Positions 2,112 to 19,591 of a stretch of 20,000 nt of DNA are shown piece after piece. Both the position numbers and the translations under genes were made by a program. Source of the DNA: Myxococcota bacterium (GTDB taxonomy: Bacteria; Myxococcota_C; UBA6777); the NCBI GenBank assembly GCA_023150835.1, contig JAKLKB010000020.1:44482-64481 (forward strand). Reading direction: 5' to 3'. Under the pieces are notes generated by a model. That model did no database searches, was not told where the DNA came from, and worked only from the letters and a program-made list of their open reading frames with translations. The number at the start of each line of letters is the position of its first letter. Within the stretch, counting starts at the first letter, position 1.

Positions 2112-3275
2112 CTAAAGCCCCCAAGAGACCGACAGGATCGGAACAATCGGGTCATTGGGGTTTAACATCTCTTGAAGATTCAAAAACACGCCAATCGAAA
2201 ACTGCCCAATGATCGAGAAAAAGCGCAGACCGAACCAAAAACTCAGCCGAAAGTCCGAAGTGAACGTGTTGTCATCAACTTTCGCTCCTTGGGGCAAAGC
2301 CACCTTCAACGAAACGCCCATCGCTCCGAACCCAAGGCTGAGATAATTCAAGTAAGGACGAGCTTGTCGGGGCATCAAAAATCGGTAAGATATCTCGGCT
2401 CCAAACAACAACGAGAGGTCGAGGTTTGTTTGAAAAGAAAACAGATCAAACCCAACGTAGGCCGAGATCAGCCACTGATCCCGAAACAAAAAATCAAGCC
2501 GAACTTCTTGACTTGTTGGCGTGATCGAATTGTTTTTGTCTGCGGCCTTGCTTCCGAGCGCAAACGAAAAGCGCGCCAAGAGATGTACTTCAAATTGAAA
2601 ATAAGGCCAACCCTCCCGTTTGGCGGGCTTGCTGTGAAAAAGCGACTCGATCAGATGCCTTCGTGCCACAAGGCCGATCGGATGGCGGCGTGGCCCAAGC
2701 TCCGTCATCACCCCGATCACACGGCCTTCTTCGTCCAACAAGGGCGCCCCCGCATACCCCCGCATCAACGGCATATTGACTTGCACGAAGTCCTTCGTGA
2801 CGCGCCCAATCGCACCTTGCACAAAACTCCAGCTCAAGGCCGTTTGCGTCAGCCTTTGCACCAACCCTTCGCTGGGAAAAGGATGTCCGACCGCACCCAC
2901 TTGGACGCCAACATCGACCTGTTCGACAGGCGAAAACACCAACGGTCGACCAGCCATCCGTCCCATAACACGCAAGATCGCTGTGTCGTGGGTCTTATTA
3001 AAAGCCCAGAGATCCGCACGAATCCATTGATGATCTTCTGCGTCTCGCTGGATCCAGATATCTCGACCGCATCCCGCAACGCTCACACTTGTCACGATAT
3101 GGTGACGATCAAATGCCAAAAACCCCGACCCTTTGCGCGTTCCGCAATGCACGATGTAGATCTGCGTCACGGTGGCCTTGTACACCCGCTGCCAACGCTT
3201 GTTCCCATACTCCATCGCAGGAGCCGTCATCGACAACCACACCGACGCCAACATCACCGAAACAACCGATGTCAT
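2112..3275 (-). CDS. Trypsin-like (S1/HtrA-type) protease-homolog domain, apparently inactive, fused to a predicted outer-membrane beta-barrel
   Basis: Signal-like N-terminus. S1C landmarks GSGF, IVTSVSV, HDTAILRV, VGAVGHP, GYAGAPLLDEEGRVIGV. The C-terminal ~165 aa has about eight amphipathic aromatic-rich strands ending ILSVSWGL. SD-like GGAAGG precedes ATG 3275. Confidence 0.8.
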   Translation of the reverse strand: MTSVVSVMLASVWLSMTAPAMEYGNKRWQRVYKATVTQIYIVHCGTRKGSGFLAFDRHHIVTSVSVAGCGRDIWIQRDAEDHQWIRADLWAFNKTHDTAILRVMGRMAGRPLVFSPVEQVDVGVQVGAVGHPFPSEGLVQRLTQTALSWSFVQGAIGRVTKDFVQVNMPLMRGYAGAPLLDEEGRVIGVMTELGPRRHPIGLVARRHLIESLFHSKPAKREGWPYFQFEVHLLARFSFALGSKAADKNNSITPTSQEVRLDFLFRDQWLISAYVGFDLFSFQTNLDLSLLFGAEISYRFLMPRQARPYLNYLSLGFGAMGVSLKVALPQGAKVDDNTFTSDFRLSFWFGLRFFSIIGQFSIGVFLNLQEMLNPNDPIVPILSVSWGL

Positions 3276-3407
3276 CGAGTAAACCTTCCATCAAACGAGG
3301 CTTTGTTCTCCATCGATGCCGCTTGTGGACAAAACCCCCCGCGTTCGCCCCGTTGCGAGCGACAGGATCGTTGTCTTGAAAAACCATCGTTCTCTTCGCC
3401 AAATTTA

Positions 3408-3456
3408 TGGGGTCAAGGGGCAAAAGTCCCTTGTGGAGTGTGGGGTTTCACCCCAC
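3408..3456 (+). repeat. REP-like twin GC-rich hairpin element in the divergent intergenic region
   Basis: CAAGGGGC-AAAA-GTCCCTTG (3414-3433, 8-bp stem with one G-T) and GTGGGGT-TTC-ACCCCAC (3440-3456, perfect 7-bp stem). G-run-rich, against the C-rich bias of this strand. Single copy in this window. Confidence 0.5.
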
Positions 3457-3566
3457 CAAAACCATCCACATCGCGCAAGTTCCATAACCAAAAAAGAACG
3501 CCGCCGATGCGTGGCGTTGCAGACTACCACAATCGCCTTCAAAAGAAAGCGGATGTTTCGATCCAG

Positions 3567-3596
3567 TTGACATCGGTACGTGTCTTTTGCAAAGCT
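3567..3596 (+). promoter_or_regulatory. Possible sigma70-type promoter for the CHASE2 gene
   Basis: Perfect TTGACA at 3567-3572. The -10 is weak (TGc-AAAGCT, 3588-3596, 18-nt spacer). Confidence 0.25.
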
Positions 3597-3684
3597 GCGC
3601 GAGGGTTCAACGTCCGTCCTTTGCGCAGACAAGAACCCAACATGCACCTGCACAACCTCGAAAGCCCAAGCGGTAGGGGCCATC

Positions 3685-6108
3685 ATGAGATCATCGTTCT
3701 TTGTTAAGCCATTCTTTGTCGCACTCCTCGTCATCTTGCTGTTGATCGTCGCCAAGTTCGTGATCGGCACAGATTACCTCGCAGACTTCGAACAACAACA
3801 ACTTCGTCAACAATTTCTCGGACGCACCCAAACTCCTGTCCGCTTTCCCAAAGACATCGTACTTGTCGAGATCAACGAAGCCAACACAGAAGCCAGCTTG
3901 CGCTGGCCTTGGGATCCCGGCAAAGTCGCGACCCTGATCAAAACACTGCGCGAAGCCAAAGCCAAAGTAATCGCGCTCTCTCTACCGTTGGTTTCGATGA
4001 GTCGAGCGTCCTACATACAAAGCCTAAAAGACGCCCTCGAACAACTCAACAAAGCCTTCCCCCCGCTTGAAAAGCTCGATCCCAACAAGACCAAAGGCAT
4101 GAACCGCCGCCAAAAAGCAGACTTCCAAAAAAAGCGTGCAAAACAAGAAGCCGAAGAAGAGCGCGTTAAAGAACTCCGCAAAAAACTAGAAGAACTCACC
4201 AAAACGGACGGATACGGCGAGCTTATCAAAGAAGTCCAAGCCACCAAAAACCTTGTGATCGGTTACTACTACTACAAAACTGAAGACAACATCCCCGGGG
4301 TAGAAGCCACTTATCTCAAACAAAAACAGCAGATACTCCACGAACAAAAGCACAACAAAGACAAGAAAAAAACCAAAAAAGACGATCGACTTGTCGATCT
4401 CTATCGCCTCGATCCACCGCAGTTTTTGCTTGGGGCGACCGTCGAGCCCGCCACCGAAGTGGCCGCTTTGCGTGAACAAGGCGATCTCGCTCGTCACCTC
4501 CGCTATCACGGCTTCCTCAACCTCACAGAGAACCCTGACAATCCCCTTTACCAAGTCCCCTTCTTTGCCAAAAACGAACAGAAGATCTATCCGAGCTTTG
4601 CACTTGCCACGTACATCGCAGCCCACCCAGACAGCCCGCCCAAACGCCTCGTTGCAAGCAGCGGATACACGGGCCTTGAGATCAACGTCAAAGGAACCAA
4701 GAAGCTTCTGCCCTTGGATCGCGACGGCCTATACCGCTTGAATTATTACGGGCCTGTTCAAAGCATCCCCCGCAATCAGCGCGCTCTTGCAAGCACGGTG
4801 ACAGAAACCAAAGGCTTTGCCGACGGATTCTTTGAAGGCAAGATCGTATTCGTCGGGATCAATCACCCACAAAAAGGGTTACGCATCCAAACTCCCTTCC
4901 CACGATCTTTTTCGGAAGTCGAACTCCACGCGATGGTCCTTGCAAACCTGCTCCAAGGAAACCCGCTGCTCCAAGGTTCCGCGATGGTCGAGATCGCTGG
5001 GTTGCTGATCTTTGGCCTACTGTTGGGCTTTTTGCTCAGCCTATTTCGGTACCTCCTTGGTTTCATCGCAACGATCGGCCTCAGCGTTACCTTGATCTTT
5101 TTGGATCGCTTCTACTTGTTCCCCGACAACGTCTGGTATCAATGGAGCTACACCATCCTCGGACTGGGCTTGATCTACCTCAGCGTCAGTCTAGTTCGCC
5201 GCCTCACAACCGATCGTGATCGCAGCCTCACCATCGGCCGCTTTCGTGAACACGTCCACCCAGACGACCTCGCCAAGATCCTCAAAGATCCAAAAAGCCT
5301 CCCCACCCAAGGAACATGGCGCCCGATCGCCTTCCTTTCCGCCTATGCCCATCCCGTCGGAGACAACCTCAGCGAAGAAAAAAATGCAGCCCGCATCAGC
5401 GAGATGTTCGCACACCTCGTCACCCCCATGGGCGAAGCCATCCGCAACGCACGCGGGATCGTGACCCAGATATCCAGCCATAATTGCCAAGGACTTTTTA
5501 ACGCTCCCCTTCCCCTCGGCAACTACGAAGAACAAGCCGCACTCGCCGCCCTCCAGATCCAATTTGCTTGGAATGACTTTGTTCACAAATACTGGATCGC
5601 CGAAGGGCTGTCGGAACCCAACTTTGGGATCGGACTGGATAGCGGATCGGCAGTAATCGGGAATTTTGGAGGCGAAAGCAACTACATCTTTACAGCAGTG
5701 GGCAAGCCTGTGACCTACAGCGAGATCCTACAAGACCTGACCAGCACCTACAAATGCCAAGTGCTGGTGTCCGAGAATATGCAGCAAAAGCTCCAAGCAA
5801 CCGGGCAATTTGTCATCCGCGAACTCGATTGGGTGCAGATCAGCGATGCACACCCCAACATGACGCTGTACGAACTGCTCGGAAAAGCCCCCGCAAGCAG
5901 CCCGCTCCCAGAAGCCGTCGAATGGTATCAACAAGGTCTTTCTTACTACCGCTCGCGAAACTTCCAAGAAGCCCAACGCTACTTCGAAGAGATCTTGCAA
6001 CGCCGCCCCCAAGATGGCCCTGCTCAAGTGATGTTGGCACGCTGCAAACAATACCTCTCCTATCCCCCCAACTTTAACTGGGACGGGACTTGGAAGCTCA
6101 AAGCCTGA
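3685..6108 (+). CDS. CHASE2-domain membrane sensor with a degenerate class III adenylate/guanylate cyclase domain and C-terminal TPR
   Basis: One N-terminal TM. CHASE2 motifs DIVLVEINE, RWPWD, AKVIAL, GFLN, YPSFALA, GKIVFVG, TPF..SEVELHAMVLANLLQG. Three further TMs. Cyclase scaffold (LFNAP, GIGLDSGSAVIGNFG, QVLVSE, RELD, LYELL) and the TPR/WDG tail typical of this architecture. Likely start ATG 3685 (AGGGG upstream; MRSSFF...) rather than the ORF-track start 3580. Confidence 0.9.
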   Translation: MRSSFFVKPFFVALLVILLLIVAKFVIGTDYLADFEQQQLRQQFLGRTQTPVRFPKDIVLVEINEANTEASLRWPWDPGKVATLIKTLREAKAKVIALSLPLVSMSRASYIQSLKDALEQLNKAFPPLEKLDPNKTKGMNRRQKADFQKKRAKQEAEEERVKELRKKLEELTKTDGYGELIKEVQATKNLVIGYYYYKTEDNIPGVEATYLKQKQQILHEQKHNKDKKKTKKDDRLVDLYRLDPPQFLLGATVEPATEVAALREQGDLARHLRYHGFLNLTENPDNPLYQVPFFAKNEQKIYPSFALATYIAAHPDSPPKRLVASSGYTGLEINVKGTKKLLPLDRDGLYRLNYYGPVQSIPRNQRALASTVTETKGFADGFFEGKIVFVGINHPQKGLRIQTPFPRSFSEVELHAMVLANLLQGNPLLQGSAMVEIAGLLIFGLLLGFLLSLFRYLLGFIATIGLSVTLIFLDRFYLFPDNVWYQWSYTILGLGLIYLSVSLVRRLTTDRDRSLTIGRFREHVHPDDLAKILKDPKSLPTQGTWRPIAFLSAYAHPVGDNLSEEKNAARISEMFAHLVTPMGEAIRNARGIVTQISSHNCQGLFNAPLPLGNYEEQAALAALQIQFAWNDFVHKYWIAEGLSEPNFGIGLDSGSAVIGNFGGESNYIFTAVGKPVTYSEILQDLTSTYKCQVLVSENMQQKLQATGQFVIRELDWVQISDAHPNMTLYELLGKAPASSPLPEAVEWYQQGLSYYRSRNFQEAQRYFEEILQRRPQDGPAQVMLARCKQYLSYPPNFNWDGTWKLKA

Positions 6109-6154
6109 CCTTCCACCTCCGCCCCTTCACCCCAAACTCTCATGGGGACGTACC

Positions 6155-6850
6155 ATGCGTACAAACACCAGTTCTTGGCTTTCCCGATCTCTCGTATACA
6201 TCGGGCTATGCGGCGCTTTACTGCTTTCCAATTGCGAGTGTAGCGCTCCCGTCCGCCCTCAAGACCGCTTCAACAACGGACTGGTGTGTACAGGTGTAAG
6301 CGGAGACAACCAATGCAAGGGACTTTTCTGTTGGCGATTCAAAAAAGATCCCCCCAACGGCGATGGCGTCTGCACCACAGTCTGCACCAACGAAGAAGAA
6401 GCTTGTGCGAACGGCGGTATCTGCCGTAAAGGCTTCCAGCCCGAGTCGCCTGATCGCGGATACTGCGTCGTCCCCTGCACCTCCGAAAAAGATTGCGCCC
6501 CCACACTTGGCTGCCAACAAATCAACAACCAAGGCGACAAATACTGCTGGCGAACAGACCCCACCACCAAACAAAACACCAACGGCAGCAAATGCACCGA
6601 TGCCCGCGAGTGCTTGGGTGGACACTGCATCAAAGGCTTGTTTGAAAGCGGGTTGGCTCTATGCAGCGAGACCTGTACGAAACTCGGCGATCCGTGCAAA
6701 CATCGCGGTGTTTGCGCTATCCAAGACACACTCGGCGGCACAGCAACACTGTTTTGCTTGGTCGAATGCCAGCAAAACAGCGACTGTTCTGACAACCTTT
6801 CCTGCAACGCTTCCCCAAGCAAGCGCAAGTACTGCGGCCTCGCCCCTTAA
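6155..6850 (+). CDS. Cysteine-rich lipoprotein with two tandem 12-Cys modules
   Basis: Signal peptide with lipobox-like LLLSN|C-E-C. Two homologous modules each start NGxxC, end KYC and carry 12 Cys. GGGGA precedes the ATG; 46-nt gap after the upstream gene. Confidence 0.85.
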   Translation: MRTNTSSWLSRSLVYIGLCGALLLSNCECSAPVRPQDRFNNGLVCTGVSGDNQCKGLFCWRFKKDPPNGDGVCTTVCTNEEEACANGGICRKGFQPESPDRGYCVVPCTSEKDCAPTLGCQQINNQGDKYCWRTDPTTKQNTNGSKCTDARECLGGHCIKGLFESGLALCSETCTKLGDPCKHRGVCAIQDTLGGTATLFCLVECQQNSDCSDNLSCNASPSKRKYCGLAP

Positions 6851-6884
6851 ACAGACTCTTCTGCGGCCTCGCCCCTTGAACAGA
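6832..6884 (+). repeat. 24-bp direct repeat (period 29) duplicating the 3' end of the Cys-rich gene
   Basis: CTGCGGCCTCGCCCCTTAAACAGA (6832-6855) vs CTGCGGCCTCGCCCCTTGAACAGA (6861-6884), 23/24 identical. Confidence 0.9.
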
Positions 6885-6897
6885 TCCGTCTTTGCTC

Positions 6898-6926
6898 TTG
6901 ACGTCCGACGCGGATACTCGTAGAGT
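6898..6926 (+). promoter_or_regulatory. Putative sigma70 promoter for the TPR lipoprotein gene
   Basis: TTGACG (6898-6903), 17-nt spacer, TAGAGT (6921-6926). SD GAGAGG at 6950-6955 precedes ATG 6961. Confidence 0.5.
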
Positions 6927-6960
6927 CAAGCGGTCTTTTTGCTAGGATAGAGAGGTTTGT

Positions 6961-7746
6961 ATGCTTTGGACAGATCGTATCCGTTGTTGGCTTCCTTTCT
7001 TTGGCGTGTGGATGCTCAGCGTTGCCCTCCTTCAAGGCTGCCCCAACGCCAAGATCCACGAACGTGCCAAGTTTCTACATGACCGAGGACTTCTACTGCT
7101 TCAACAAGACAAATTGGAACTTGCAGAAGAAAGCTTCAAAGCAGCCCTTGAGTACGACGCCCGCTTTAAACAGGCCCTCAATAGCCTCGGTCTGCTCGCC
7201 GTCCGTAAAGGCAAACTCAAAAAAGCCGAAACCCTCTTCAAACAAGCCCTTGCGATCGACTCCAATTTCGCCAACGCACGCGGTAACCTTGGGTATGTGT
7301 ACTTCCAATACAAAGACTACCCCAAATCCATCCAGCTCAATCTCTCGGCTTTACAGATCGAACCCGCCCTTCACGACGCACGCTACAACCTCTCGCTTGC
7401 TTATTTTTATACCCGCGACTTCAAAAACGCACGCAAACACCTCGTCCGATTGTTGCTCTACGATCCGAACCACGTCAACGCACACTTTGTCCTGAGTTCC
7501 ATCGAGTTCGAGCGGAAAAACTACAAGCAAGCCGCTCAACACGCCATCCGCGCCGCTCAGATCGATCGCAACCACAAACGCGCTTACGAAGTCCTTTGCA
7601 AATCCTTCTATCACCTCGGTCAATACAAGATCTCCTGCCAACAGTGCAAGCAGATCGTTCGCATCGATCCCGAAGACCCCATCGGCAAAACACTCGTCGA
7701 TGTCGTCCACAAAAAGCTCCAAGAAACTGGGGAATCTTGCCAATAA
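6961..7746 (+). CDS. TPR-repeat lipoprotein (Tgl/PilF-like architecture, orthology not established)
   Basis: Lipobox LLQG|C, then about six canonical 34-aa TPRs (ALNSLGLL..., ARGNLGYVY..., ARYNLSLAY..., AHFVLSSI...). 261 aa with a good SD. Confidence 0.88.
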   Translation: MLWTDRIRCWLPFFGVWMLSVALLQGCPNAKIHERAKFLHDRGLLLLQQDKLELAEESFKAALEYDARFKQALNSLGLLAVRKGKLKKAETLFKQALAIDSNFANARGNLGYVYFQYKDYPKSIQLNLSALQIEPALHDARYNLSLAYFYTRDFKNARKHLVRLLLYDPNHVNAHFVLSSIEFERKNYKQAAQHAIRAAQIDRNHKRAYEVLCKSFYHLGQYKISCQQCKQIVRIDPEDPIGKTLVDVVHKKLQETGESCQ

Positions 7747-8037
7747 ACCTTTGTTATCCGCTGATTTCCTTTGGTATGTATGTCGTTGTTGTGTCTCTCT
7801 CTCTCGAAAACGTGGTTGCCTTTCCTCGAAGGCCTGTGCTAATAGAAAGGCCCAACATTTTCGTCTGTGCGGACTTCTCATACAAAGCGCGAACGTCTCT
7901 GTGAGGAAATCAAACTACACCCAAAGCCTTCTTCATCAAAGACCTCACGCAACGCATGGTAGCATTCGTTTTTTTTGTGGTTGGATACTGAAACGCGAGT
8001 GAGCATTGAAACTTCAGCACGCAGGAGCGGTGAGTCT

Positions 8038-11000
8038 ATGTCGGTAGAAGAAATTCAGAATTATTTGCGGATCCTAGAGGCCGTTCCAACGAACGTGCCT
8101 GCTTTCGAAGCCCTCAAGCAGATCTACACAGAACACCAACGTTGGGAAGAACTGGCCCAACTCGTAGAAGACCGTGCGGAACGCTTGCCTGATCGCAGTC
8201 AAGCCCCTGCGCTTTATCTACAAGCGGCCAACACTTGGTTCCACAAGGAGCAAAACACCGAACGCGCCAAAAAGACCATCACCAAAGTGTTGGAGTTGAT
8301 CCCCAACGAACGCAACGCCCTCGCTCTCTGGCGCGAACTCGCCACTTTTGAAGGGGACTTTGCAACCGCGATCAAGATCTTGCGCCAAGAGATCCAGATC
8401 ACCGAAGACGCCCGCGAAAAAAGCAAGCGTTTTGTGGATATCGCCAAGATCTTCGAAGAACACATGGACAACCAAGAACACGCTGCGATGGCCTACCATC
8501 AAGCCTTCTTGCAAGACCCCGAGAATTTGGGGCCGATGGAGCAAGCGCTTCGACTCTACCGCAGCCGAGGCGATTGGCAACGTGTGATCGCAGTCCTGCG
8601 AGCGCGGCTCGAAAAAGTCTCCGAAGCCTCGAACAAAGCGCGCCTGATGTTCCAAATCGGCCAAATCTTTATCCAACATCTTGATGAAGGCAAAACTCCC
8701 GAAGGACTCGCCAAAGCCGCTCAACTTTTCCGCGAAGCCCTTAACCTTGATCCCGATCTCGATGACTTTGACAACGCACTCGAACTCTACAAAGACAACA
8801 AAGAGTGGTCTCAAGTCACCGCACTCTTGCGCGCAAAACTCGAGGTTGTCACCGAAAACACCAAAAAAGCGCGGCTGCTGCTTGAGCTTGGAAACGTCAT
8901 TCTTCAACACCTCGAAGAAGGACAAACCCCCGAAGGTCAACAAAAAGCCTCGCAATTCTTTCAAAAAGCCCTTGAGTTCGACCCCAGCCTCAACGAAGCC
9001 AAAGAAGCCATCGAAGAACTTTCCTACGCAACGGAAGATTGGTCTTCTCTGCTCAAGCGTTTGAAGAAAGACATCCGTGACGCGGGCAAAGACGAAGATC
9101 GCGCCGCCTTCTTGAACTACAAGATCGCAGAAGGCTATCTCCTCCGAGAAGACAAACCTGCTTACGCTGTCCGTTATTGCAAACAAGCCCTCGAACTCCA
9201 ACCCAACCACACCAAGTCTCAAGACCTGTTGCAGCGCTTGTACGCGGATTTGGAACGATGGGAAGCCTTGGCGGACTTCTTTAACGATTGCACCAAAACG
9301 GCCCTTGATGCCCCGGCAAAAGTCAAGTGGCTCAAAAAACTCGCTCGCCTTTACCGCGAACAAACCAAAGAACGCGAACGCGAGATCGAAACCCTTGAAC
9401 GCATCCTTGATATCCTTCCCACCGAGCGCGAAACCCTCCAACACCTCGAGAACATCTACCGCGACAACGGCCAATACAGCCGCGCACTCGAAGTGATGGA
9501 CAAGCGTCTCAAAACCTTTGAAGAATCCGCAGCGAAAAAAACCCTGCTCTACGAGATGGCCACCCTCGCCAACAAGGAACTCCAAGACTCAACGCGAGCC
9601 GCCGGATACTACGAGCGGATCTTGTCTCTTGATCCCGACGAGATGGACGCGATCGATGCGTTGCTGCCGCTATATGAAGCCGAAGCCCGTTGGGAAAACC
9701 TGATCCAAGGACTCAAGCGAAAGCTCGAACGCACCGAAGATCGGCACGCTCGCGCAACCATGCTGACACGTGTCGGCGACATCTACGCGCAACGCCTTGC
9801 TCTCTCCAAAGAAGCCTTCGATGCCTACACACAAGCCCTTCGTGAAAACCCCCAAGACAGCGATCTGACCCAAAAACTCGAAGCCCTCGCACGTCAGATC
9901 GGTAACTGGGAAGAGATGGTCGCGCTCTACCGCAACACCTTGGAAAGCGCAAACGATCCTGCCGATCAAGCCGCCCTCTACTTCCGCATCGGCGACATCT
10001 ACGAACGCGAACTCCAAGATGTCGAGCAAGCCAAAGCATCCTACGAAGAGGCTCTCGAACGCGCCCCACAACTCGGCGCAATGAACGCCCTTCAACGCCT
10101 CTATCGCCAAAGCGAAGACTGGACCTCCTTGGCAGAGCTTCTCCAAGAAAAGTCCAAAAACGACAACCTCGATGAAGACCAACGCATCGAAGTCTTCGAA
10201 GAACTCGCTCGCATTCAACTCAACTACATCGACGATGCCGACGGTGCAGCCGAGACTTACGAAAAGCTGCTCGACGCAAGCCCTTCGTATGGCCCAGCCC
10301 TCGAAGCCTTGGAGCGTGTCTACAAACAAAACGAAAATTGGGCCAAACTGCGTGGTGTCTACCAGCGCCGCGTGGACAACCCCAACAGCGAGTCCGAACT
10401 CAAATCGACGCTACATATCCTCGGTAGCCTTTTGATCGAACAGCTCGATGCTTTCGAAGATGCCGTCCAAGTCTACCAACAATTGCGCGTCCTTGATCCC
10501 AACGACTTGAGCATCTTGACCCGACTCGAAGGTCTCTATCGCGACTTGGGCCAATGGGAACAATGGGTGGACACTGCGCGCCAACGCGCTGAAAGTATCC
10601 GTCGCCCCGAGCAAAAGAAAGAAGTCTTGCTGGAGATCGCCAAGATCCAAGAAGAAGAACTCGATGATTCTGTCGGAGCGATCGCTGTTTTGCGCGAACT
10701 TCACGAGATCGACAGCCAAGATATCAAGATCCTCGATGAACTTGAGCGACTTCTCGAAGTCGAAGACGATAAAGCCGGTCAGTTGGAGATCCTTCGCAAA
10801 AAGGTGAACCTCCAACAAAATGCCAACGAGAAAAAAGTCCTGCTCTTCCGCGTCGCAGACCTCCACCGTGCGCTTGATAACGAAAGCGATATGGCCGAAG
10901 CCTACCGCGAGATCTTGGATATCGATCCCCGCGACCTTCGATCCTTGCGCTCCCTCCAAGCCTACAACCAACTCCAAGGCGATCACGAAGGCGTCCTCGA

Positions 11001-14000
11001 TCTCTTGCTGCGCGAACGCGATATCGTCACCGAAGACGCCGATCGCAGCCGCCTCACTCAACGCATTGCTCAACTTCAAGCAAACTTGGGCCGTTACGAA
11101 GACGCGATCATCGAATATCGCCAGATCCTCGCCCAAAACAACAACGACAACCAAGCCCGCACGGCGCTGGAAGAGATCGCAACCAAACACGCTGGCTGGC
11201 GCGTTGAAGCCCTCCAAGTCCTCGAACCGATCTACCGCGCAGCCCAAGACTGGGAAGCCTTGGTCAAGGCACTCGAAGCTCGCTTCCAAGTGGTGCATGA
11301 CAAAGCACAACGCCTCGATATGGCCCGTGAACTCGAAGAGATCTATCGCCGCCTGAGTGACGATGAAAAAGCTTTCTATTGGAGTTGCCAACTCCTACGC
11401 GAAGACTTCGCGGATACCGAGATGCGCGAACGTGTCGAGATGATGGCCGATGAGATGGAGCGTTGGGACGAATTGCTCGTAGTCTACGAAGATATCGTTC
11501 GCAGCTTTGTTGATCGCCAACAGATCGTCGAAACCTACCTGTTTATCGCACGCAATTATCAAGATCGCCTCAGCCAACCCGAAAATGCCCTGCGTAACTA
11601 TCGCCGCGTGTTGGACTACGATTCCAATAACCCCGAAGCCATCGACGCGCTCGAAGAACTGTATCGTGCGCTCGGACAATGGCGCGATCTGATCGATATC
11701 TTGCGTATGCGCGTCGAGATGACCGCCGCCGTCGACGAAAAGAAAGAACTCCTGTTTGAAGTCGCCGATCTATGGGAAGACAAACTCCAAGATCCCCCCG
11801 AAGCCATCCAAGTCTTCAACGATATCTTGGAACTTCAAAACAACAACCTGACCGCGATCCGTCGTCTTGCTGCGTTGTATGAGCGAGAGTCCCGATACAC
11901 CGACCTCGCAGAAACATGGGAAAAAGAACTCTCCCTACTCGACAACGAAGAAGAACTTCTTTCCTTGCGCTTCAACCTTGGGCAACTGTATGCGGATCAT
12001 CTCAACCGCATCGAAGACTCCCTCAAGATGATGCAGCAAGTCCTCGAAGTGGATCCCGAGCACCAAGAAGCCATCCAGCGCGTCCATGCTCTTCGCGAAG
12101 AAGACGCTTACCGCTTGATCTGCGCCCGCATCTTGGAGCCGATCTATCTCCACCAAGAAAACTATCCCGAACTCAAAGCCATCTACAAGATCCAACTCGA
12201 AGACGCTTCACAAAACGCAAACGACCGTCGCAAGGCCCTGATGCGCCTTGGCCAGTTGCACGAAGAAAAGCTCGGCGAATTCCGCGAGGCTTTTGACCGC
12301 TACCTCCAAGTGTTCAAAGAAACCCCCGGCCAACACGGTACCCGAAAAGCCCTGTTGCGTATGAGCGAAAAGCTCGATGCTTGGCGCGAATTGGCTCTGA
12401 ACTTTGAAAACGGTGTCGATGCTTGCGAAGACTCCGAAGAAAAGATCCAAATCCACCTCGATTTGGCGCGGATCTACCGCGAACGCCTCCACGATCCAGA
12501 TCGCGGAATGAATCACGACCGCCGTGTCGTGGACGATCTTGATTCCAAAAACCTCCAAGCCATCGAAGCCTTGGAAGACTTTTATCAAGAGCGCGAAAAC
12601 TGGCATTCGCTGATCGACATCCTCTTCCAAAAAGAACAAGCCCTCCACGATGAAGTCCTCAAAAAGGGCGTGTTCAATCAGATCGCCAATATCTATGAGA
12701 ACCAACTCTCCGACAAATACCAAGCGATCTTGATCTTGCGCCAATACCTCAGCCGACTTGAAACCCAAGATCCCGGCCCTGCCCCTGTTGAAATCGCCTT
12801 GCGCGAAGCAAAAGAGCGCGAAACCAAGCTCCAACAGGAAAACCAAGAACTGATCGATGCCGTCGAGATGGCTCGCGAACAGCTTTCCAGCCTCGAAAAC
12901 CAAGCCGAAGAGGCCGAAGCTTCGCTCAAAGAGTACCGTGACATCGTCGCAGAATCCATGCGCACCCCCGAAGAAGACGCCGAAGTCGAGCGCACTGAGG
13001 CCGCATGGAAACAAACGCAAGCCGCGCTTGCAAAAGCCGAAGAATCGGCGGCTGCACGCATCGCACATGCCAACGCGCTCGCTGCTGAACTTCAATCTCT
13101 CGAAGAAGCCGCTGAACCCGATGTAGACGCCATCGCAGTCAAAACAGGCGAAGTGGCCGATGCCACCGAAGCTGTGGAAGCTGCCGATCACCAGATCGAA
13201 GAAGCCCGATACATCGCCCAAGCCGCACGCACCGCCTACGAAGACGCTCAAACCGCAAAAGCCGCAGCATCCGCAGCCGGCCCCAGTTCGGATCAAGCGT
13301 CCGAACTCAAACGTCTTGAATCGATGCACCGAATGGTTCAGCAAGCCCAAGAAGCCAAAGCTGCCGAACTGCGCGAGATGCAAGAACAACTCGATCAAGC
13401 AGAAGTCAAAGAAGCCGAAGCTGCCGAAGCCGTCCGCACCGCCGAACAAGCCATGGAAGCAGCGGCGGAGCAGATCCAAACTATCCTTGAGCAACGCACC
13501 GCCTTCAAACTCGACACCATCCAAGAACTCGCTCGGCTCTTTGAAGAAGAAGAGCGTTGGGCTGATCTCGTCGAGATCTTGGAAAAAGAAGTCGAATTGC
13601 TCGCAGAACCCGAAGAAGCCCTGCGCCTGCGCTTCCGCATCGCTCAGCTCTGGCAGGATCAATTGCACGATGTCCCCCGTTCTATCCGCCTTTATCGTGA
13701 GATCCTCAACGACGATCCCGACTTTGAATCCGCCCTCCAAGTCATGGAAGAACTCAGCGAAAATGAAGATTACCAACTCATGGTCGCCGAATCGCTCGAA
13801 AGCTATTTCCGCGAAGGCCGCCAAGATTGGACTCGCTTGATCGAGATGGTCGAGATCCAACTCAACCACACCGCTGAAAGCGAAAAACGCTTGGCCTTCC
13901 TCAAAGAGATCGTGGCTCTCTACGAACTCGAACTCGACAACACCGATATGGCCTTCGTCTATCTGTGCCGTGCTTTCCGCGAAGCCCCCACCGATCGCGA

Positions 14001-17000
14001 TGTCATCTCCGAACTCGAACGCCTCGCCGAAGAAAACGATGCGTGGGAAGAACTCGTCGGTGTCTACGAAGACAAGGTCGAAGACATCGGCGATATCCAA
14101 CTCGCCCTGCGGATGTACCTCAAGATCGCCAACATCTACGACGAAGCGCTTCAAGATCCCGAAGAAGCCATCAAAAACTACTGCAACGCCCTGAAACTCG
14201 ACGAGCACAACAACGTCGCTCTCAACGCCTTGGATCGCCTCTATCGCCAAGAGCGCCAATGGGAACAACTCGTCGATATCCTTCAACGCAAGGTCTACAC
14301 CAGCGCAGACACCCGCGAACAAGTCACCTTGCTTTCTCGCGTCGCGCAGATCTGGGAACGTGAACTCGAAAACCCCAGCGAGGCCATCGGCGCATACCGC
14401 CGTATCCTCGAAGTCGACAGCCAAAACGCAAACGCCCTCTCCTCGCTCCAACGGCTCTACGAAGAAGACCAACAATGGGAAAACCTCTTCGAGATCTGCC
14501 AACGAAAAGTCGGCCTTGTCGACGCCGTCTCCGAACGCGCCAAGCTCACCAAACAAATGGCGCAGATCTGTGCCCTACATCTCGGTCGAACTGCCGAAGC
14601 CATCGAGCTTCACGAAAGTGTCCTAGCGACCTCCGAGCGCGACGAAGAGAGCTTGACAGCCCTCCACACCCTCTATGAACAAACCGAACGATGGGATGCG
14701 TTGGTCAACATCGTGCAGCGTCTTCTCAAAGTCGTGTCGGGTGTGGAAAAGAAAAAAGACTTTTACCGAACCCTCGGCCGTACCTACGGCGAACGCCTGT
14801 TTGAAGAAGAAAAAGCCATTGAAGGCTGGCAAAAAGTCCTTGAACTCGATCCCAAAGATCGAGATGCCCTCGAAGCCCTCCAACGTATCTACGCCAACCG
14901 CGAAGAGTGGCAAAACCTCGTGGGGATCTTGCGCCGCCTGATCCCGCTTCAAACCGAACCCGCCCAAACCTTGGAGATCTACCTGCGCCTTGCCTCGATC
15001 TACCAAGAAAAAATGAACCGCCTTGAAGACGCGATCGCCTCTTGGCGCCGCGTCTTGGAGATCGATCCAACCCACTGGCAAGCCCTTGATACGTTGGAAA
15101 ATCTGTTGATCGAGCGCAACGATTGGCGCGCAGTCCTCGGCATCTTGGAAAAGAAGGAAGCTGTGGTTCAAGACAACTTCTCCAAGATCGAACTCTTGAT
15201 GCGCGCCGCACAGATCTGCCAAGAGCGCCTGCGCGAGATCAACCGCTCCACACCTTACTACGAACGCATCCTCGAGTTCGATCCCACTTACCTCCGAGCC
15301 GTCGAAGCCTTGGGCTCGATCTACACGCGCAACCAAGATTGGAAAAAGCTGGTCAACATCTTCAACATCGAAGTCAACTTGTTTGAAGAGAAAAGCCAAA
15401 AGCTTGAAAAGCTGAAAGCCATCGCAGAGTTGTACGAAAATCGCCTCTTCAACAAGGCCGAATCGTTCAACACGCTGTTGCGCGCCTTCCAGATCGATCC
15501 TGAACAAGACGAGATCCGCACGCGCTTGGAACGTATCGCGGACGAAACCGACCGTTGGAACGACCTTGTTGGCGTCTTCGCCCAAGAGATCGATCGCATC
15601 GAATTCTTTGACACCAAGATCGCTCTCCTGATGCGCATCGGCCACATCTACCACGTCGAGCTTCGCGAAAGCGAACCCGCGATCGTGGCCTACCAAAAGA
15701 TCATGCTGATCGATGAAAACCATCGCCAAAGCATTGAGGCGCTCGAAGAACTCTACGACGAAACTGAGCGCTGGCCCGAACTGATCGCCATATACAACAA
15801 AAAGCTCCAGATCACGCACGAGATCGAAGAACAAAAAGATCTGCTCTTCCGCATCGCCGAGTTGCAAGAGTACCAACAAGGCGATCGCGTCGCAGCCATC
15901 GAGGCTTACCGTCAGATCCAAGCCCTCGATCCAAGCGATCGCGCTGCACTCGAAGCTCTCGAAAAACTCTACCGCGAAGAACAACGCTGGCCCGAACTGA
16001 TCGACGTGTTGAATCGACGCATCCAACAAAGCACCGATCAAAAACAGATCTTCCGTATGAAGTTCGAGGTCGGTTCGATCTACGCCAACAAGCTCGAAGA
16101 ACTCAATCTTGCGGTCGATGCTTATCGCGACGTTCTCAGCATGGACCCCAACAACCTCGACGCGATGCACGCGCTTGAGCGGCTGTACACCGATCTCGAA
16201 GACTGGAATTCGCTTCTTCAGATCCTCCATCGCGAGCTTGAGATCAGTACCCGCCCCGAAGAAAAAGTCCCGCTGTATGGCCGCATGGGATTGATTTGGG
16301 AAGAAGAACTCGGTCAGCCCGGTCGCGCCATCGAATGCTTGACCTACATCCTCGAAGTCGATCGCTGGAATATCGGTGCCATCAAAGATCTCGAACGGCT
16401 TTATCGCCAAGCCCAAGAATGGCAACGCTTGATCGAGATCTACGAACAACACATCCGCGCCATCAACGACCTCGAAGAGATGGCGATGCTCTACTACGAA
16501 GTGGGTTCGATCTACGAAACCTACATGGGCGATGTAGACAAAGCCACAACCTACTACCTCCGCGTTCTTGATGCGGATCCGTACTACCAACCCGCACTCT
16601 CCTCGCTTGGAAAGATCTACGAATCCGTCGGAAACTGGCCCAAATGCATCGAGATGAGAGAGCGCGAAGCCAAGGTCGCCAACGAACCCGAGCGCCTCGT
16701 CGAAGTGTACTTCAGCATCGGCAAGATCTACGAAGAGCGCCTCGTTCAAATCGACCGCGCCAAAGAAAGCTACCGCAAAGCACTCGAGATCCAACCCAAC
16801 TATCTCCCCGCTCTGCGCGCACTCAAGGTGATCCACTTCTTGCAACGCGACTGGGAAGGCGTGATCCGACTTGCCCACATGCAAGAGCAATTCACCGATG
16901 CACCCGAAGAAAAAGCGATCCTCTTCTGTGAAATCGGAAAGATCTCCCGAGAACGCCTCTCCAATATGCCCAACGCCATCCAAAGCTACGCCCAAGCCCT

Positions 17001-19182
17001 TCATTTGGTCCCGGGCTACCTCAACGCTGCCAAGCCACTCGCCGAACTCTACATGGAAGCCAAGCGATGGGCAGAAGCAGAGCAAGTCTTGGATATCGTG
17101 GTACAAGTCCTCCAACAAAACGAACTCAGCGAGGATCTCTATCTCTGGTATTACCAACTGGCCCTTGCTTCCGAGAAACAAGACAATATCCAAAAGGCAC
17201 TCTACTACTACCAAGAGTCCTATAACCTCAACCCGACCCACTTCCCCACCCTCAACGGTCTTGGTCGGATCTACTACACCAAACAAGAGTGGGATCGTTC
17301 GCTCAAGGTCTACCAAACCATCCTGTACCACCACCGCGCACAGCTTTCTGAACGCGATCTCAGCGAAGTGTATTATCGGATGGGTCTGGCTTTTGACCAA
17401 ATGCAGCAGCCCGAACAAGCGATCGAGTACTACGAACAAGCCCTTGAGATCGACCCCGCCAACCCCCTCGTGTTGCGCCGCCTCTCCCAATACGCCGAAT
17501 ATCAGCAAGATTGGGAACGCACCCTCGAACTCAAAGAACGCCTCCTGCTCGTTCTCGAAGAAGAAGAAGAACGCTACCAAATCAATATTGAACTGGGTAC
17601 TTTGTGCCAAGAACGCCTTGGCCGCTTGCACCAAGCTGTCGACTTCTTCCGTCAAGCCTTCAATCTCAAGCCCGAAGACCTCAATCTCCTCTACAAATTG
17701 CTCGGCCTCTACCAAGAAACCGAACAATGGTACGAGATGATCGAGACTTTGGAGATCTTGATCCAAGCGACCCAAGAACTGGAGCAACAGCTTCAGTACG
17801 TCTATCAGATCGCCGAGATCTACCAATCGCGTCTCCAAGACGTCGACAACGCGGTCGGATACTACAACAAAGCCTTGGATATGCACCCCGGCTATGATCC
17901 GGCCTTCCAAGCCCTCGAACAGTTGTTGTTCCACATCCAAGACTGGGCCCGACTCGACGAAAACTACCGCCAGATGTTGCGACGCCTTCCCCAAGACGAC
18001 AGCCAACCCGAGCGCAAGCTCGAGATCTGGCGCAAGTTGGGTGAGTTGTACCGCTACAAGCTCAACAATCTCGACAACGCCGTCATGGCCTATGAGATCG
18101 TCTACCAACTCGAACCCAATGTCCCCAACTTGGAGATCCTCGCCGATCTTTACGGACAAAGCGAAAACTATCGCCCCAAAGCCGTCGAGATCCATCACAA
18201 GCTGTTGCTCCAAAACCCCGCACGCATCGATTCGTACAAATCGCTGATCCGACTCTACTACGAACTCCAACAATACGACCGTTCCTTCGCGGTTTGCTCG
18301 ACACTCAAGTTCTTGCGCGAAACCTCTGCCGAAGAGGATCAGTTCTACAACAGCATGAAAGAGAAAGCCCCCGACCGCATCACTCGTGCCTTCCGCGAAG
18401 AAGAAACGTGGCGCGAACTCCTCTTCCATCCCAGCGCAAAAACACCGCTGGCCGATATCATGGCGATCCTTTACCAATTCTGCGGAACCAGCTTCGCCAA
18501 AAGCACCAAAGAATACAAAATCAAAAAGACCGATCGCGTCGACCCAAGCCTCTTCTTCTCCCGTACCTACGACTACGTCGCCAAGGTACTCAACCTTCAG
18601 CCCCAAGAAGTCTACACAAGCACCCTTGTTTCGGGCTTGCGCGTGGTCAACACCTTCCCGCCTGTGATCTTGGCTGGCGAAGATATGTTCAAAGAACGCC
18701 ATCCCAAAGAGCTTTTGTTCATGATCGCACGCCAGATCACGCTTTCTCGCCCTGAGTTCATCTTTGCATCTGTCCTCTCTTATCAAGAGTTCCGTGCGTT
18801 GCTGTCCTCGCTCTTCCATATGTACAACGCGAACTTCCCGCTCGAAGTCCCTCAAGACGTCGCGCAACAGATCCAAGGCCGCATCTCCAAAACCTTGCCC
18901 GCAGATCGCCAAGGGCAGCTCACCCAACTGATCCAAGCCTGTATGCAAGATCCCAACGCCATGAACCCAGACCGTTTCCTCGAAGGCATCGAGCATACCG
19001 CCAACCGCGTTGGTTTTGCCCTCGCTGGCGATATGAACATCTCCTCCAAAGTCTGCGAACGCGAAGGCCGCGATGACTTCAAAGTCGCCCACCGCGCCAA
19101 AGTCAAAGAGCTCGTCCTTTACTCGATCTCCGAAGAATACTTCACCTTCCGCGATCGCCAAGGACTTGCCGTCAAACTCTAA
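8038..19182 (+). CDS. Giant (~3714 aa) cytoplasmic TPR-repeat protein, AgmK/GltI-like
   Basis: Uninterrupted 11.1-kb ORF with consistent codon usage. Dozens of TPR-like units of the form A..AY..IL..DP....ALEALE.LY....W..L. No signal peptide or TM. AGGAG at 8023-8027 supports ATG 8038 over the ORF-track start 7975. Size and repeat style recall Myxococcus AgmK/GltI (from recollection, not aligned). Confidence 0.92.
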   Translation: MSVEEIQNYLRILEAVPTNVPAFEALKQIYTEHQRWEELAQLVEDRAERLPDRSQAPALYLQAANTWFHKEQNTERAKKTITKVLELIPNERNALALWRELATFEGDFATAIKILRQEIQITEDAREKSKRFVDIAKIFEEHMDNQEHAAMAYHQAFLQDPENLGPMEQALRLYRSRGDWQRVIAVLRARLEKVSEASNKARLMFQIGQIFIQHLDEGKTPEGLAKAAQLFREALNLDPDLDDFDNALELYKDNKEWSQVTALLRAKLEVVTENTKKARLLLELGNVILQHLEEGQTPEGQQKASQFFQKALEFDPSLNEAKEAIEELSYATEDWSSLLKRLKKDIRDAGKDEDRAAFLNYKIAEGYLLREDKPAYAVRYCKQALELQPNHTKSQDLLQRLYADLERWEALADFFNDCTKTALDAPAKVKWLKKLARLYREQTKEREREIETLERILDILPTERETLQHLENIYRDNGQYSRALEVMDKRLKTFEESAAKKTLLYEMATLANKELQDSTRAAGYYERILSLDPDEMDAIDALLPLYEAEARWENLIQGLKRKLERTEDRHARATMLTRVGDIYAQRLALSKEAFDAYTQALRENPQDSDLTQKLEALARQIGNWEEMVALYRNTLESANDPADQAALYFRIGDIYERELQDVEQAKASYEEALERAPQLGAMNALQRLYRQSEDWTSLAELLQEKSKNDNLDEDQRIEVFEELARIQLNYIDDADGAAETYEKLLDASPSYGPALEALERVYKQNENWAKLRGVYQRRVDNPNSESELKSTLHILGSLLIEQLDAFEDAVQVYQQLRVLDPNDLSILTRLEGLYRDLGQWEQWVDTARQRAESIRRPEQKKEVLLEIAKIQEEELDDSVGAIAVLRELHEIDSQDIKILDELERLLEVEDDKAGQLEILRKKVNLQQNANEKKVLLFRVADLHRALDNESDMAEAYREILDIDPRDLRSLRSLQAYNQLQGDHEGVLDLLLRERDIVTEDADRSRLTQRIAQLQANLGRYEDAIIEYRQILAQNNNDNQARTALEEIATKHAGWRVEALQVLEPIYRAAQDWEALVKALEARFQVVHDKAQRLDMARELEEIYRRLSDDEKAFYWSCQLLREDFADTEMRERVEMMADEMERWDELLVVYEDIVRSFVDRQQIVETYLFIARNYQDRLSQPENALRNYRRVLDYDSNNPEAIDALEELYRALGQWRDLIDILRMRVEMTAAVDEKKELLFEVADLWEDKLQDPPEAIQVFNDILELQNNNLTAIRRLAALYERESRYTDLAETWEKELSLLDNEEELLSLRFNLGQLYADHLNRIEDSLKMMQQVLEVDPEHQEAIQRVHALREEDAYRLICARILEPIYLHQENYPELKAIYKIQLEDASQNANDRRKALMRLGQLHEEKLGEFREAFDRYLQVFKETPGQHGTRKALLRMSEKLDAWRELALNFENGVDACEDSEEKIQIHLDLARIYRERLHDPDRGMNHDRRVVDDLDSKNLQAIEALEDFYQERENWHSLIDILFQKEQALHDEVLKKGVFNQIANIYENQLSDKYQAILILRQYLSRLETQDPGPAPVEIALREAKERETKLQQENQELIDAVEMAREQLSSLENQAEEAEASLKEYRDIVAESMRTPEEDAEVERTEAAWKQTQAALAKAEESAAARIAHANALAAELQSLEEAAEPDVDAIAVKTGEVADATEAVEAADHQIEEARYIAQAARTAYEDAQTAKAAASAAGPSSDQASELKRLESMHRMVQQAQEAKAAELREMQEQLDQAEVKEAEAAEAVRTAEQAMEAAAEQIQTILEQRTAFKLDTIQELARLFEEEERWADLVEILEKEVELLAEPEEALRLRFRIAQLWQDQLHDVPRSIRLYREILNDDPDFESALQVMEELSENEDYQLMVAESLESYFREGRQDWTRLIEMVEIQLNHTAESEKRLAFLKEIVALYELELDNTDMAFVYLCRAFREAPTDRDVISELERLAEENDAWEELVGVYEDKVEDIGDIQLALRMYLKIANIYDEALQDPEEAIKNYCNALKLDEHNNVALNALDRLYRQERQWEQLVDILQRKVYTSADTREQVTLLSRVAQIWERELENPSEAIGAYRRILEVDSQNANALSSLQRLYEEDQQWENLFEICQRKVGLVDAVSERAKLTKQMAQICALHLGRTAEAIELHESVLATSERDEESLTALHTLYEQTERWDALVNIVQRLLKVVSGVEKKKDFYRTLGRTYGERLFEEEKAIEGWQKVLELDPKDRDALEALQRIYANREEWQNLVGILRRLIPLQTEPAQTLEIYLRLASIYQEKMNRLEDAIASWRRVLEIDPTHWQALDTLENLLIERNDWRAVLGILEKKEAVVQDNFSKIELLMRAAQICQERLREINRSTPYYERILEFDPTYLRAVEALGSIYTRNQDWKKLVNIFNIEVNLFEEKSQKLEKLKAIAELYENRLFNKAESFNTLLRAFQIDPEQDEIRTRLERIADETDRWNDLVGVFAQEIDRIEFFDTKIALLMRIGHIYHVELRESEPAIVAYQKIMLIDENHRQSIEALEELYDETERWPELIAIYNKKLQITHEIEEQKDLLFRIAELQEYQQGDRVAAIEAYRQIQALDPSDRAALEALEKLYREEQRWPELIDVLNRRIQQSTDQKQIFRMKFEVGSIYANKLEELNLAVDAYRDVLSMDPNNLDAMHALERLYTDLEDWNSLLQILHRELEISTRPEEKVPLYGRMGLIWEEELGQPGRAIECLTYILEVDRWNIGAIKDLERLYRQAQEWQRLIEIYEQHIRAINDLEEMAMLYYEVGSIYETYMGDVDKATTYYLRVLDADPYYQPALSSLGKIYESVGNWPKCIEMREREAKVANEPERLVEVYFSIGKIYEERLVQIDRAKESYRKALEIQPNYLPALRALKVIHFLQRDWEGVIRLAHMQEQFTDAPEEKAILFCEIGKISRERLSNMPNAIQSYAQALHLVPGYLNAAKPLAELYMEAKRWAEAEQVLDIVVQVLQQNELSEDLYLWYYQLALASEKQDNIQKALYYYQESYNLNPTHFPTLNGLGRIYYTKQEWDRSLKVYQTILYHHRAQLSERDLSEVYYRMGLAFDQMQQPEQAIEYYEQALEIDPANPLVLRRLSQYAEYQQDWERTLELKERLLLVLEEEEERYQINIELGTLCQERLGRLHQAVDFFRQAFNLKPEDLNLLYKLLGLYQETEQWYEMIETLEILIQATQELEQQLQYVYQIAEIYQSRLQDVDNAVGYYNKALDMHPGYDPAFQALEQLLFHIQDWARLDENYRQMLRRLPQDDSQPERKLEIWRKLGELYRYKLNNLDNAVMAYEIVYQLEPNVPNLEILADLYGQSENYRPKAVEIHHKLLLQNPARIDSYKSLIRLYYELQQYDRSFAVCSTLKFLRETSAEEDQFYNSMKEKAPDRITRAFREEETWRELLFHPSAKTPLADIMAILYQFCGTSFAKSTKEYKIKKTDRVDPSLFFSRTYDYVAKVLNLQPQEVYTSTLVSGLRVVNTFPPVILAGEDMFKERHPKELLFMIARQITLSRPEFIFASVLSYQEFRALLSSLFHMYNANFPLEVPQDVAQQIQGRISKTLPADRQGQLTQLIQACMQDPNAMNPDRFLEGIEHTANRVGFALAGDMNISSKVCEREGRDDFKVAHRAKVKELVLYSISEEYFTFRDRQGLAVKL

Positions 19183-19402: not shown

Positions 19403-19591
19403 AAGTTCCCCTGCCCGGTGCGTGATTGATGCAGAGAGTTTCGAACCAATGTGTAGAAAAAAGGGAGCGCAAGTTGGTTGAGAAGATGACACCACACGAA
19501 AGTGTTGGATGACGCCGAGACAGCCACAGCGTACCCACCTTTTGGACCCGGTTCAAAAGATCCTGTTCACACGGCCAGCGGCGGGGGTTTT
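19403..19591 (+). ncRNA. ssrS: 6S RNA
   Basis: ~185-nt rod. Closing stem CCCCTGCC (19408-19415)/GGCGGGGG (19580-19587). GAACC/GGTTC and GGGAGCGC/GCGTACCC helices flank a central bubble (AATGTGTAGAAAAAA opposite ACCTTTTGGACCC). Apical ACAC-GAAA-GTGT GNRA hairpin. Conserved 6S words in the expected order (GAACC, GGGAGC, CCCACC, GGTTCAAAA, ACGGC), then a T-rich tail. Ends approximate. Confidence 0.88.

Follow-up and report, generated by a model that had tools for sequence, protein, structure and literature searches.

Do neighbouring genes that each carry a degenerate enzyme domain make up one machine, or do they merely lie side by side? The question is raised by positions 2112 to 19182 of a 20,000-nt stretch of Myxococcota DNA (contig JAKLKB010000020.1 of assembly GCA_023150835.1). 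This stretch, called the window below, forms the final 20 kb of contig C148 in the source genome (G000; 7.56 Mb in 239 contigs, estimated to be 93% complete), and it is filled by seven genes that we read as real. A sequence-only reading had proposed that five of them encode a single system spanning the cell envelope: an inactive trypsin domain on an outer membrane (OM) barrel, an inactive class III cyclase on a CHASE2 receptor of the inner membrane (IM), an inactive M48-like domain at the end of a giant TPR protein, and two lipoproteins. What it observed was largely borne out. None of the five open reading frames (ORFs) is interrupted (2112-3275 on the minus strand; 3580-6108, 6155-6850, 6961-7746 and 7975-19182 on the plus strand), the three domains are degenerate, including an M48 likeness missed by Pfam, and the predicted locations range from the OM or periplasm through the IM to the cytoplasm. 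The homologies, the residue losses, the gene order and these predicted compartments are matters of observation; the assignment of the five genes to one system found no support. A synteny check against five relatives splits the interval into separately inherited units, and we conclude, with a probability that we put at about 0.62, that it is a juxtaposition of separately conserved units and not one machine, the giant being of the GltI type.

The synteny set consisted of the source genome and five other genomes of its family, G001 to G005; the phylum itself has only six genomes in the GTDB set used. G001 belongs to the genus of G000, G004 to a second genus, and G003 and G005 to one third genus. 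The gene order of the window is found again in G001. In G004 the genes for a HEAT protein, a peptidase and the trypsin-like protein (hereafter pseudo-HtrA) are followed divergently by those for the CHASE2 receptor, a DUF819 protein, an ATP-grasp protein, the TPR lipoprotein and the giant. G003 has a 1074-aa HEAT protein next to the CHASE2 receptor and, divergently, pseudo-HtrA, peptidase and HEAT; there, other short contigs carry the TPR lipoprotein and the giant, the latter in two halves. In G005 the giant and the TPR lipoprotein are accompanied by GTP cyclohydrolase II and a WD40 protein, and orthologs of the CHASE2 receptor and of pseudo-HtrA were not found (genome 86% complete). None of the genes was found in G002 (64% complete).

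Two associations emerge from this comparison. The TPR lipoprotein gene is directly upstream of the giant in all four genomes where this can be resolved (G000, G001, G004 and G005), with gaps of 291 to 384 nt, and the CHASE2 gene is divergent from the pseudo-HtrA gene in the four genomes that hold both (G000, G001, G004 and G003). The two pairs adjoin each other in G000, G001 and G004 and not in G003, and the genes found between them differ: the Cys-rich protein in the genus of the window, DUF819 and ATP-grasp in G004. The interval would thus be made of three units: the TPR lipoprotein gene with the only GltI/AgmK-type giant of G000 (6961-19182), the CHASE2 pseudo-cyclase receptor (3685-6108), and a run of minus-strand genes that starts at 3275 and continues beyond the window. 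Judging from synteny, the second and third probably work together.

The third unit extends beyond the interval of the sequence-only reading, which had missed it as a longer run headed by pseudo-HtrA. Going down the minus strand from 3275, the pseudo-HtrA gene (2112-3275) is followed by that of a lipoprotein resembling MA-clan metallopeptidases (1050-2093) and by that of a HEAT-repeat protein (3-1037; the window holds the N-terminal 345 aa of a 481-aa ORF, L088:18074-19519; Pfam HEAT_2, E 9e-39), whose N-terminus looks like a signal peptide. The genes beyond the start of the window, on the same strand, are orf197, MlaE (238 bits), an ABC ATPase (MlaF), two MlaD/MCE proteins and a DUF3078 protein; the intergenic gaps in this part are of 4 to 52 nt, with one exception of 192 nt. 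The order pseudo-HtrA, peptidase, HEAT is kept in G000, G001, G004 and G003: peptidase orthologs adjoin the pseudo-HtrA gene in the latter three, and HEAT orthologs come after the peptidase gene in G004 and G003. In G001 and G004, too, the HEAT gene is followed by the set from orf197 to DUF3078 (38-98% identity). In the peptidase the HEIAH motif is intact and a lipobox, LVGC, is present; its scores were 21.2 bits for Peptidase_MA_2 (below the cut-off of 32.4) and 28.6 bits for the Flagellinolysin HExxH model; it is apparently active, as far as its motif tells. By its gene content, the run headed by pseudo-HtrA is a putative operon for envelope lipid transport of the Mla/MCE type with accessory proteins. 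MlaE, the ABC ATPase and the two MlaD/MCE genes are tightly packed, as in the MlaFEDB-type transporter; we know of no pseudo-HtrA, HExxH lipoprotein, HEAT or DUF3078 accessory genes in the Mla system of E. coli. A system that spans the envelope may thus exist here, but one of the Mla/MCE type and with an apparently active peptidase among its parts.

The identity of the first unit depends on the giant (8038-19182, plus strand), a protein of 3714 aa if translation starts at the ATG at 8038, within a 3735-aa ORF open from a TTG at 7975. It matches TPR families only and has neither a signal peptide nor any hydrophobic window that could be a transmembrane (TM) segment, which agrees with its previous description as a cytoplasmic scaffold. 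We assign it to the GltI/AgmK type. A search with its last 380 aa returned 1843 cluster representatives at E ≤ 1e-3, of which 1027 reached E ≤ 1e-10; among the 150 matches listed, the matching segment forms the C-terminal end, or lies close to it, in proteins that measure up to about 4400 aa. Five Myxococcota metagenome-assembled genomes (MAGs) gave 18 matches to the C-terminal domain, which fall into four size classes (about 4100, 1950, 1790 and 3350 aa), and the giant is the only family member in G000. It is linked to the class of about 4100 aa: identity to it is about 30-34%, the E value against a 4154-aa giant of genome G043 is 1e-59, and a maximum-likelihood tree of 22 C-terminal domains joins the clade of the window to this class with support of 97/97 and separates it from the other three.

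What makes this grouping informative is the neighbourhood of the 4154-aa protein. Upstream of its gene are those for OMP_myx_plus, GltC (609 bits, cut-off 450) and a 1228-aa TPR protein and, nearer to it, GltE (240 bits, cut-off 225), GltG (595 bits, just below the cut-off of 650) and CglE (109 bits, cut-off 70); downstream is a zinc-finger protein that resembles GltJ (241 bits, cut-off 450). The order is that of M. xanthus, where Table 1 of PMC3169522 gives gltG-H-I-J. The same paper describes agmK, i.e. gltI or MXAN_4863, as coding for a TPR protein of 4132 aa that lacks both a signal peptide and a TM segment, and published predictions have the TPR array of GltI docking the cytoplasmic domains of GltG and GltJ. 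In this cluster of G043, an inserted AbiEi/AbiEii toxin-antitoxin pair separates the giant from the CglE (GltH)-like gene (G043:C2:116127-117925; L031:12127-13925).

The likeness between the giant and the GltI of the M. xanthus Agl-Glt system extends to size (3714 aa here, 3822 or 4132 aa in what PMC11761067 and PMC3169522 report), to the cytoplasmic location without signal peptide or TM segment and to a large helical C-terminal domain, again as these two sources describe it. Furthermore, the giant's genome carries GltC/D/E/G/H/J-like genes, and the C-terminal domain of the giant falls with the class that a MAG encodes between gltH and gltJ. The difference is in the location of the gene, which is outside any glt cluster, after the gene of a small TPR lipoprotein and before a 6S RNA gene. 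G000 has its glt-like clusters on contigs C115 and C176, and neither cluster holds a giant; there, the CglE-like gene is followed by a 385-aa TPR protein and then by an S1-domain protein, and a GltJ-like gene is found beside the C115 cluster. By homology, the giant is a GltI/AgmK-type scaffold and would provide, in the cytoplasm, the TPR scaffold on which the Agl-Glt machinery of gliding (bacterial focal adhesions) is built. The idea that the interval is associated with motility thus holds for the giant, through its membership in the gliding-motor scaffold group (PMC11761067, PMC3169522). It would follow that in a small and deep-branching lineage (6 species in the GTDB phylum) gltI has moved out of the glt cluster and is accompanied by a small TPR lipoprotein gene and the 6S RNA gene.

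The end of the giant deserves attention for another reason. Its last 380 aa were modelled by AlphaFold2 (AF2) with a pLDDT of 92.8, as three TPR-like hairpins followed by a globular alpha/beta domain of about 270 aa (18376-19179). The claim that this domain is an inactive relative of M48 peptidases received support from a comparison of profiles by hhalign, in which an alignment of 150 family members was matched to one of 30 M48 peptidases over 170 columns with a probability of 87% and an E value of 4e-6; eight controls (two unrelated alignments, the reversed M48 alignment and five column shuffles) were all at E ≥ 0.22. The match places A-R-Q-I-T-L over A-H-E-x-x-H, so that R-Q-x-x-L replaces HExxH, and EHTANRVG over ExxADxxG; the Glu of the EHTANRVG segment presumably occupies the position of the third zinc ligand of M48. 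Leads from the Atlas pointed in the same direction, with scores of 0.80-0.81 for M48 clusters. Other approaches did not show it: no M48 match to the C-terminal domain was seen by Pfam at E ≤ 10, sequence and profile searches of the PDB with this domain returned TPR proteins only, and the Foldseek and VIA-align lists obtained with the 380-aa model were swamped by TPR matches to residues 1-112, with no match for the globular part.

With respect to M48 peptidases (HtpX, BepA, Ste24, Oma1; PF01435), the match covers the beta-sheet, the 'active-site' helix and the helix bearing the Glu; the domain differs from them in having neither HExxH nor a Pfam match, in being cytoplasmic and in being fused to thousands of TPR residues. 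The loss of HExxH is a trait of the whole family and not of the locus: at the position of the first His, 71 of 150 members have R, 68 have K and a single one has H, and the pattern [R/K]-x-x-x-[Y/L/F] is found family-wide. This domain is also the best-conserved part of the giant, with 66-73% identity across genera versus 39-48% for the neighbouring genes. It could be an ancient zincin fold of the M48 type which lost its zinc site in the entire family and now acts as a binding module, not as a protease. A literature search gave no M48-like reading of the GltI C-terminal domain, and the main text of PMC11761067 (supplements aside) contains none of the terms peptidase, protease and M48, so that the M48-like nature of this domain, as suggested by the profiles, is possibly new. 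A zincin-like fold without a zinc site in GltI scaffolds suggests a peptide-clamping module and offers a concrete target for mutagenesis.

For the CHASE2 receptor of the second unit, the ORF is open from 3580 and the database proteins begin at the ATG at 3685 (3685-6108, plus strand; 807 aa, P0173). CHASE2 is recognized with 103 bits, hydrophobic windows are found at residues 34-70 and 463-514, and one TPR is present at the C-terminus. The cyclase domain (PF00211, Guanylate_cyc) was not seen in this protein by Pfam, even at E ≤ 10; residues 540-722 nevertheless align to solved class III cyclases in a phmmer search of the PDB (6fht, 1.1e-6; 3r5g, 1.6e-5; 2w01, 1e-4; 1wc0, 2.7e-4). From these alignments the domain is inactive, as had been noticed before: the two metal-binding Asp are replaced by Tyr and His, the Lys by Gln, the Asn by Thr and the Arg by Ile. 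The catalytic set is missing in all five family orthologs (39-100% identity), with an Asp retained at the second metal position in G004, and all five residues are kept in seven of seven distant CHASE2-cyclases. An independent set gave the same contrast: loss in 2/2 family orthologs versus retention in 6/6 distant homologs. The motifs surrounding the lost residues remain conserved. Among 14 matches to the receptor, PF00211 was undetected in the three close relatives and found in the other 11.

In its organization (N-terminal TM segment, periplasmic CHASE2, TM bundle, cyclase-homology domain), the receptor follows the order of CHASE2-class III adenylate cyclases (PF05226 + PF00211), many of which also end with one TPR and to which it is 20-28% identical over most of its length; it differs from them in lacking the metal Asp pair, the substrate Lys and the transition-state Asn and Arg. 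The catalytic residues would have been lost before the genera of the family diverged, and the domain nonetheless conserved. If so, the receptor could make neither cAMP nor cGMP, and may signal through dimerization or through the contacts made by its dead cyclase dimer and TPR tail. On the strength of its residues, this pseudo-cyclase receptor is a new variant of a known family; a literature search, by titles, gave nothing specific on CHASE2 pseudo-cyclases in Myxococcus. With its fully degenerate and conserved cyclase domain, and its gene divergent from the pseudo-HtrA/Mla run, it makes a clean case of a bacterial pseudo-cyclase receptor. Elsewhere, in two unrelated genomes, the gene of an active-type CHASE2-adenylate cyclase homolog adjoins an M48 peptidase gene (G011:C6:12408-15667 and G033:C1:60160-62839), perhaps a sign that CHASE2 sensors and M48 proteases are more widely connected.

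Pseudo-HtrA, the first protein of the third unit, is recognized by Pfam as Trypsin_2 (58 bits, cut-off 27.6). Alignment to Deg1 (3qo6, E 1.9e-10) shows that the catalytic His is replaced by Ser and the catalytic Ser by Ala, and that the Asp is retained; the domain was thus rightly called dead. In the AF2 model (pLDDT 72.9), the N-terminal domain matches the protease domains of DegS and HtrA (Foldseek E 1.6e-9, TMt 0.7-0.8). The N-terminus looks like a signal peptide, and two Cys are invariant in the family. This family is narrow, with 15 full-length relatives in 5.8 billion clusters. Across its 16 members (38-100% identical), the catalytic His is represented by S, A, K, G or H, the catalytic Ser by A, T, S or E; one member (P0171) has the full His-Asp-Ser triad, and others retain His or Ser alone.

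The OM barrel attributed to pseudo-HtrA fared less well than its trypsin domain. In its favour, residues 230-386 were modelled as eight long strands, Atlas leads point to clusters of OM beta-barrels with scores of 0.88-0.89, and the protein has a conserved C-terminal end, ...SVSWGL. On the other side, the pLDDT of this region is only about 50-83, and no Pfam OMP family matched the C-terminal piece at E ≤ 10. As modelled, an OM beta-barrel is plausible. Pseudo-HtrA shares with HtrA/DegS/DegP (S1C) the fold and sequence family of the protease domain, and all are exported; it differs in lacking the catalytic His and Ser and the PDZ domain, in place of which there is a beta-rich domain of about 160 aa with eight predicted strands. 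This fusion is possibly a new variant of the HtrA family, to the extent that the model can be trusted. The protein may act as a non-catalytic partner, in the periplasm or the OM, of the Mla-type system, of the CHASE2 sensor, or of both.

How do these results bear on the original proposal, that contact- or mechano-signalling is the task of a single assembly, made up of pseudo-HtrA in the OM, the CHASE2 pseudo-cyclase, the giant and both lipoproteins and acting by protein interactions? The compartments predicted for the five proteins, the conservation of three domains that are all non-catalytic, the proximity of the two gene pairs in G000, G001 and G004 and the membership of the giant in a motility scaffold family are what such an assembly would lead one to expect. 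We nonetheless consider it improbable, and it does not pass the refutation test that was proposed along with it, on the distribution of the genes in related genomes. The neighbour of the CHASE2 gene in G003 is the gene of the 1074-aa HEAT protein; in G005 the pair made of the TPR lipoprotein and the giant adjoins GTP cyclohydrolase II, with no CHASE2 or pseudo-HtrA ortholog found; what separates the two pairs varies with the genus; the pseudo-HtrA gene is packed into an Mla-type run; and the GltI-type giants of other Myxococcota are in glt clusters, where the 14 kb read upstream contain neither a CHASE2 nor a trypsin gene. Still less likely, in our view very much so, is that the three pseudoenzymes are just divergent active enzymes or decaying genes devoid of any special non-catalytic role. 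The complete triad of P0171, the lone His or Ser of other pseudo-HtrA members and the low or absent Pfam scores of the degenerate domains would fit this explanation; the intact ORFs do not, nor do the uniform loss of the cyclase catalytic set amid conserved motifs, the high conservation of the giant's C-terminal domain relative to its neighbours, or the near absence of His (1/150) at the first zinc-ligand position. The alternative that bears on the giant itself is that of a GltI-like paralog with a non-motility job, for instance a general cytoplasmic scaffold in a lineage-specific system that involves the TPR lipoprotein and is unrelated to Agl-Glt. This has more to recommend it, namely a gene located in neither of the glt-like clusters of G000, the existence in other Myxococcota of at least four paralog classes of which one has been seen in a glt cluster, the modest identity to the 4100-aa class, and an upstream lipoprotein without counterpart in the gltH-gltI order of M. 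xanthus as given in Table 1 of PMC3169522. We regard it as unlikely, though deserving to be kept in mind, given that the giant is the sole family member in a genome which retains GltC/D/E/G/CglE- and GltJ-like genes, that the tree joins it to the class of the glt cluster, and that its size and architecture fit the account of GltI in PMC11761067.

The preferred reading, of separately conserved units with a GltI-type giant, has its own weak points. The units are adjacent in two of the three genera, so that a functional link is possible; G003 and G005 share a genus, and the separation of the pairs may amount to a single rearrangement; the incompleteness of G005 and G002 makes the missing genes there weak evidence. 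Concerning the giant, its orthology to GltI rests on the synteny of G043 and on the tree, there are three further paralog classes in the Myxococcota MAGs, its gene is not in a glt cluster in G000, and several of the Glt-like matches of G000 are below the NCBIfam cut-offs (GltG, 442 bits; CglE, 67.7 bits; GltJ-like, about 115 bits). The M48 likeness, finally, comes from one profile-profile comparison at 87%, and no structural match was obtained for the globular part.

If adjacency were functional after all, the CHASE2 pseudo-cyclase could read the state of the OM via pseudo-HtrA and the Mla transporter and relay it, by the dimer of its dead cyclase and its TPR tail, to the GltI scaffold, whose M48-like domain would clamp an unstructured tail. 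Focal adhesion assembly in gliding would then be gated by the state of the envelope, or by contact, without any second messenger. We hold this scheme to be highly doubtful. Under the preferred reading, the locus illustrates how 'dead enzymes' can stand strikingly close together by chance, as parts of units that evolve separately; the largest of these enzymes already had a name.

The two small proteins encoded between the receptor and the giant were both taken for lipoproteins, a reading that the lipobox supports in one of them. The TPR protein (6961-7746, plus strand) is a small periplasmic lipoprotein according to its TPR match and its lipobox, the G-C of which is invariant in 3/3 orthologs, as are three C-terminal Cys. 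It was tried as Tgl or GltE and rejected, with 48 and 61 bits (61 for the GltE model) against cut-offs of 225. A search for it in the five Myxococcota MAGs returned generic TPR matches only. The other protein (6155-6850, plus strand; 231 aa), secreted or a lipoprotein, has an atypical lipobox, L-S-N-C. It contains 27 Cys, seems to consist of four copies of a spaced-Cys module, each some 45 aa long, matches no Pfam or NCBIfam family and is confined to the genus: among the five other family genomes it is found only in G001 (87% identity).

In four genomes, a spacer of 291 to 384 nt separates the TPR lipoprotein gene from the giant (7747-8037 in the window; L011:11289-11670; L012:14680-15002). 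The gap of 290 nt previously reported is thus 291 nt if the giant begins at the ATG at 8038, and a conserved AGGAG upstream of that start is in keeping with this choice. G000 and G005 have in common the block TCGAAA.CGTGGTTGC...TGCTAA, and a conserved Shine-Dalgarno region, GCAGGAGCGGTGA, precedes the giant. This spacer of about 300 nt may be a promoter or a leader. The internal promoters invoked for the interval did not stand out: promoter-like sites (3 versus 2.4 expected) and terminator-like sites (7 versus 8.5 expected) are at chance level in the window.

About 220 nt after the stop codon of the giant is a 6S (SsrS) RNA gene (19405-19591, plus strand; Rfam RF00013, 57.5 bits for a gathering score of 46.4, full-length match 1-187). 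It is no part of the claimed system, and because it occupies these positions the small ORFs found after the giant are spurious. At the matching place in G003, G004 and G005, tblastx reveals similarity on both strands, which suggests that the gltI-ssrS neighbourhood is conserved in the family.

Further up the source contig, two gene groups unrelated to the above were encountered. About 14-18 kb upstream of the window (G000:C148:26745-30933; L088:745-4933) is the gene of a precursor with many Inhibitor_I10 repeats of the marinostatin/microviridin type, adjoined by an MvdD-type ATP-grasp gene: together they form a cluster for a microviridin-like ribosomally synthesized and post-translationally modified peptide. 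At G000:C148:31661-36892 (L088:5661-10892) are ATP-citrate lyase-type genes (Citrate_bind + Citrate_synth_N; Ligase_CoA + Citrate_synt) with an adjoining isocitrate dehydrogenase-like gene, as in the reductive tricarboxylic acid cycle, an unusual combination in a Myxococcota-like genome.

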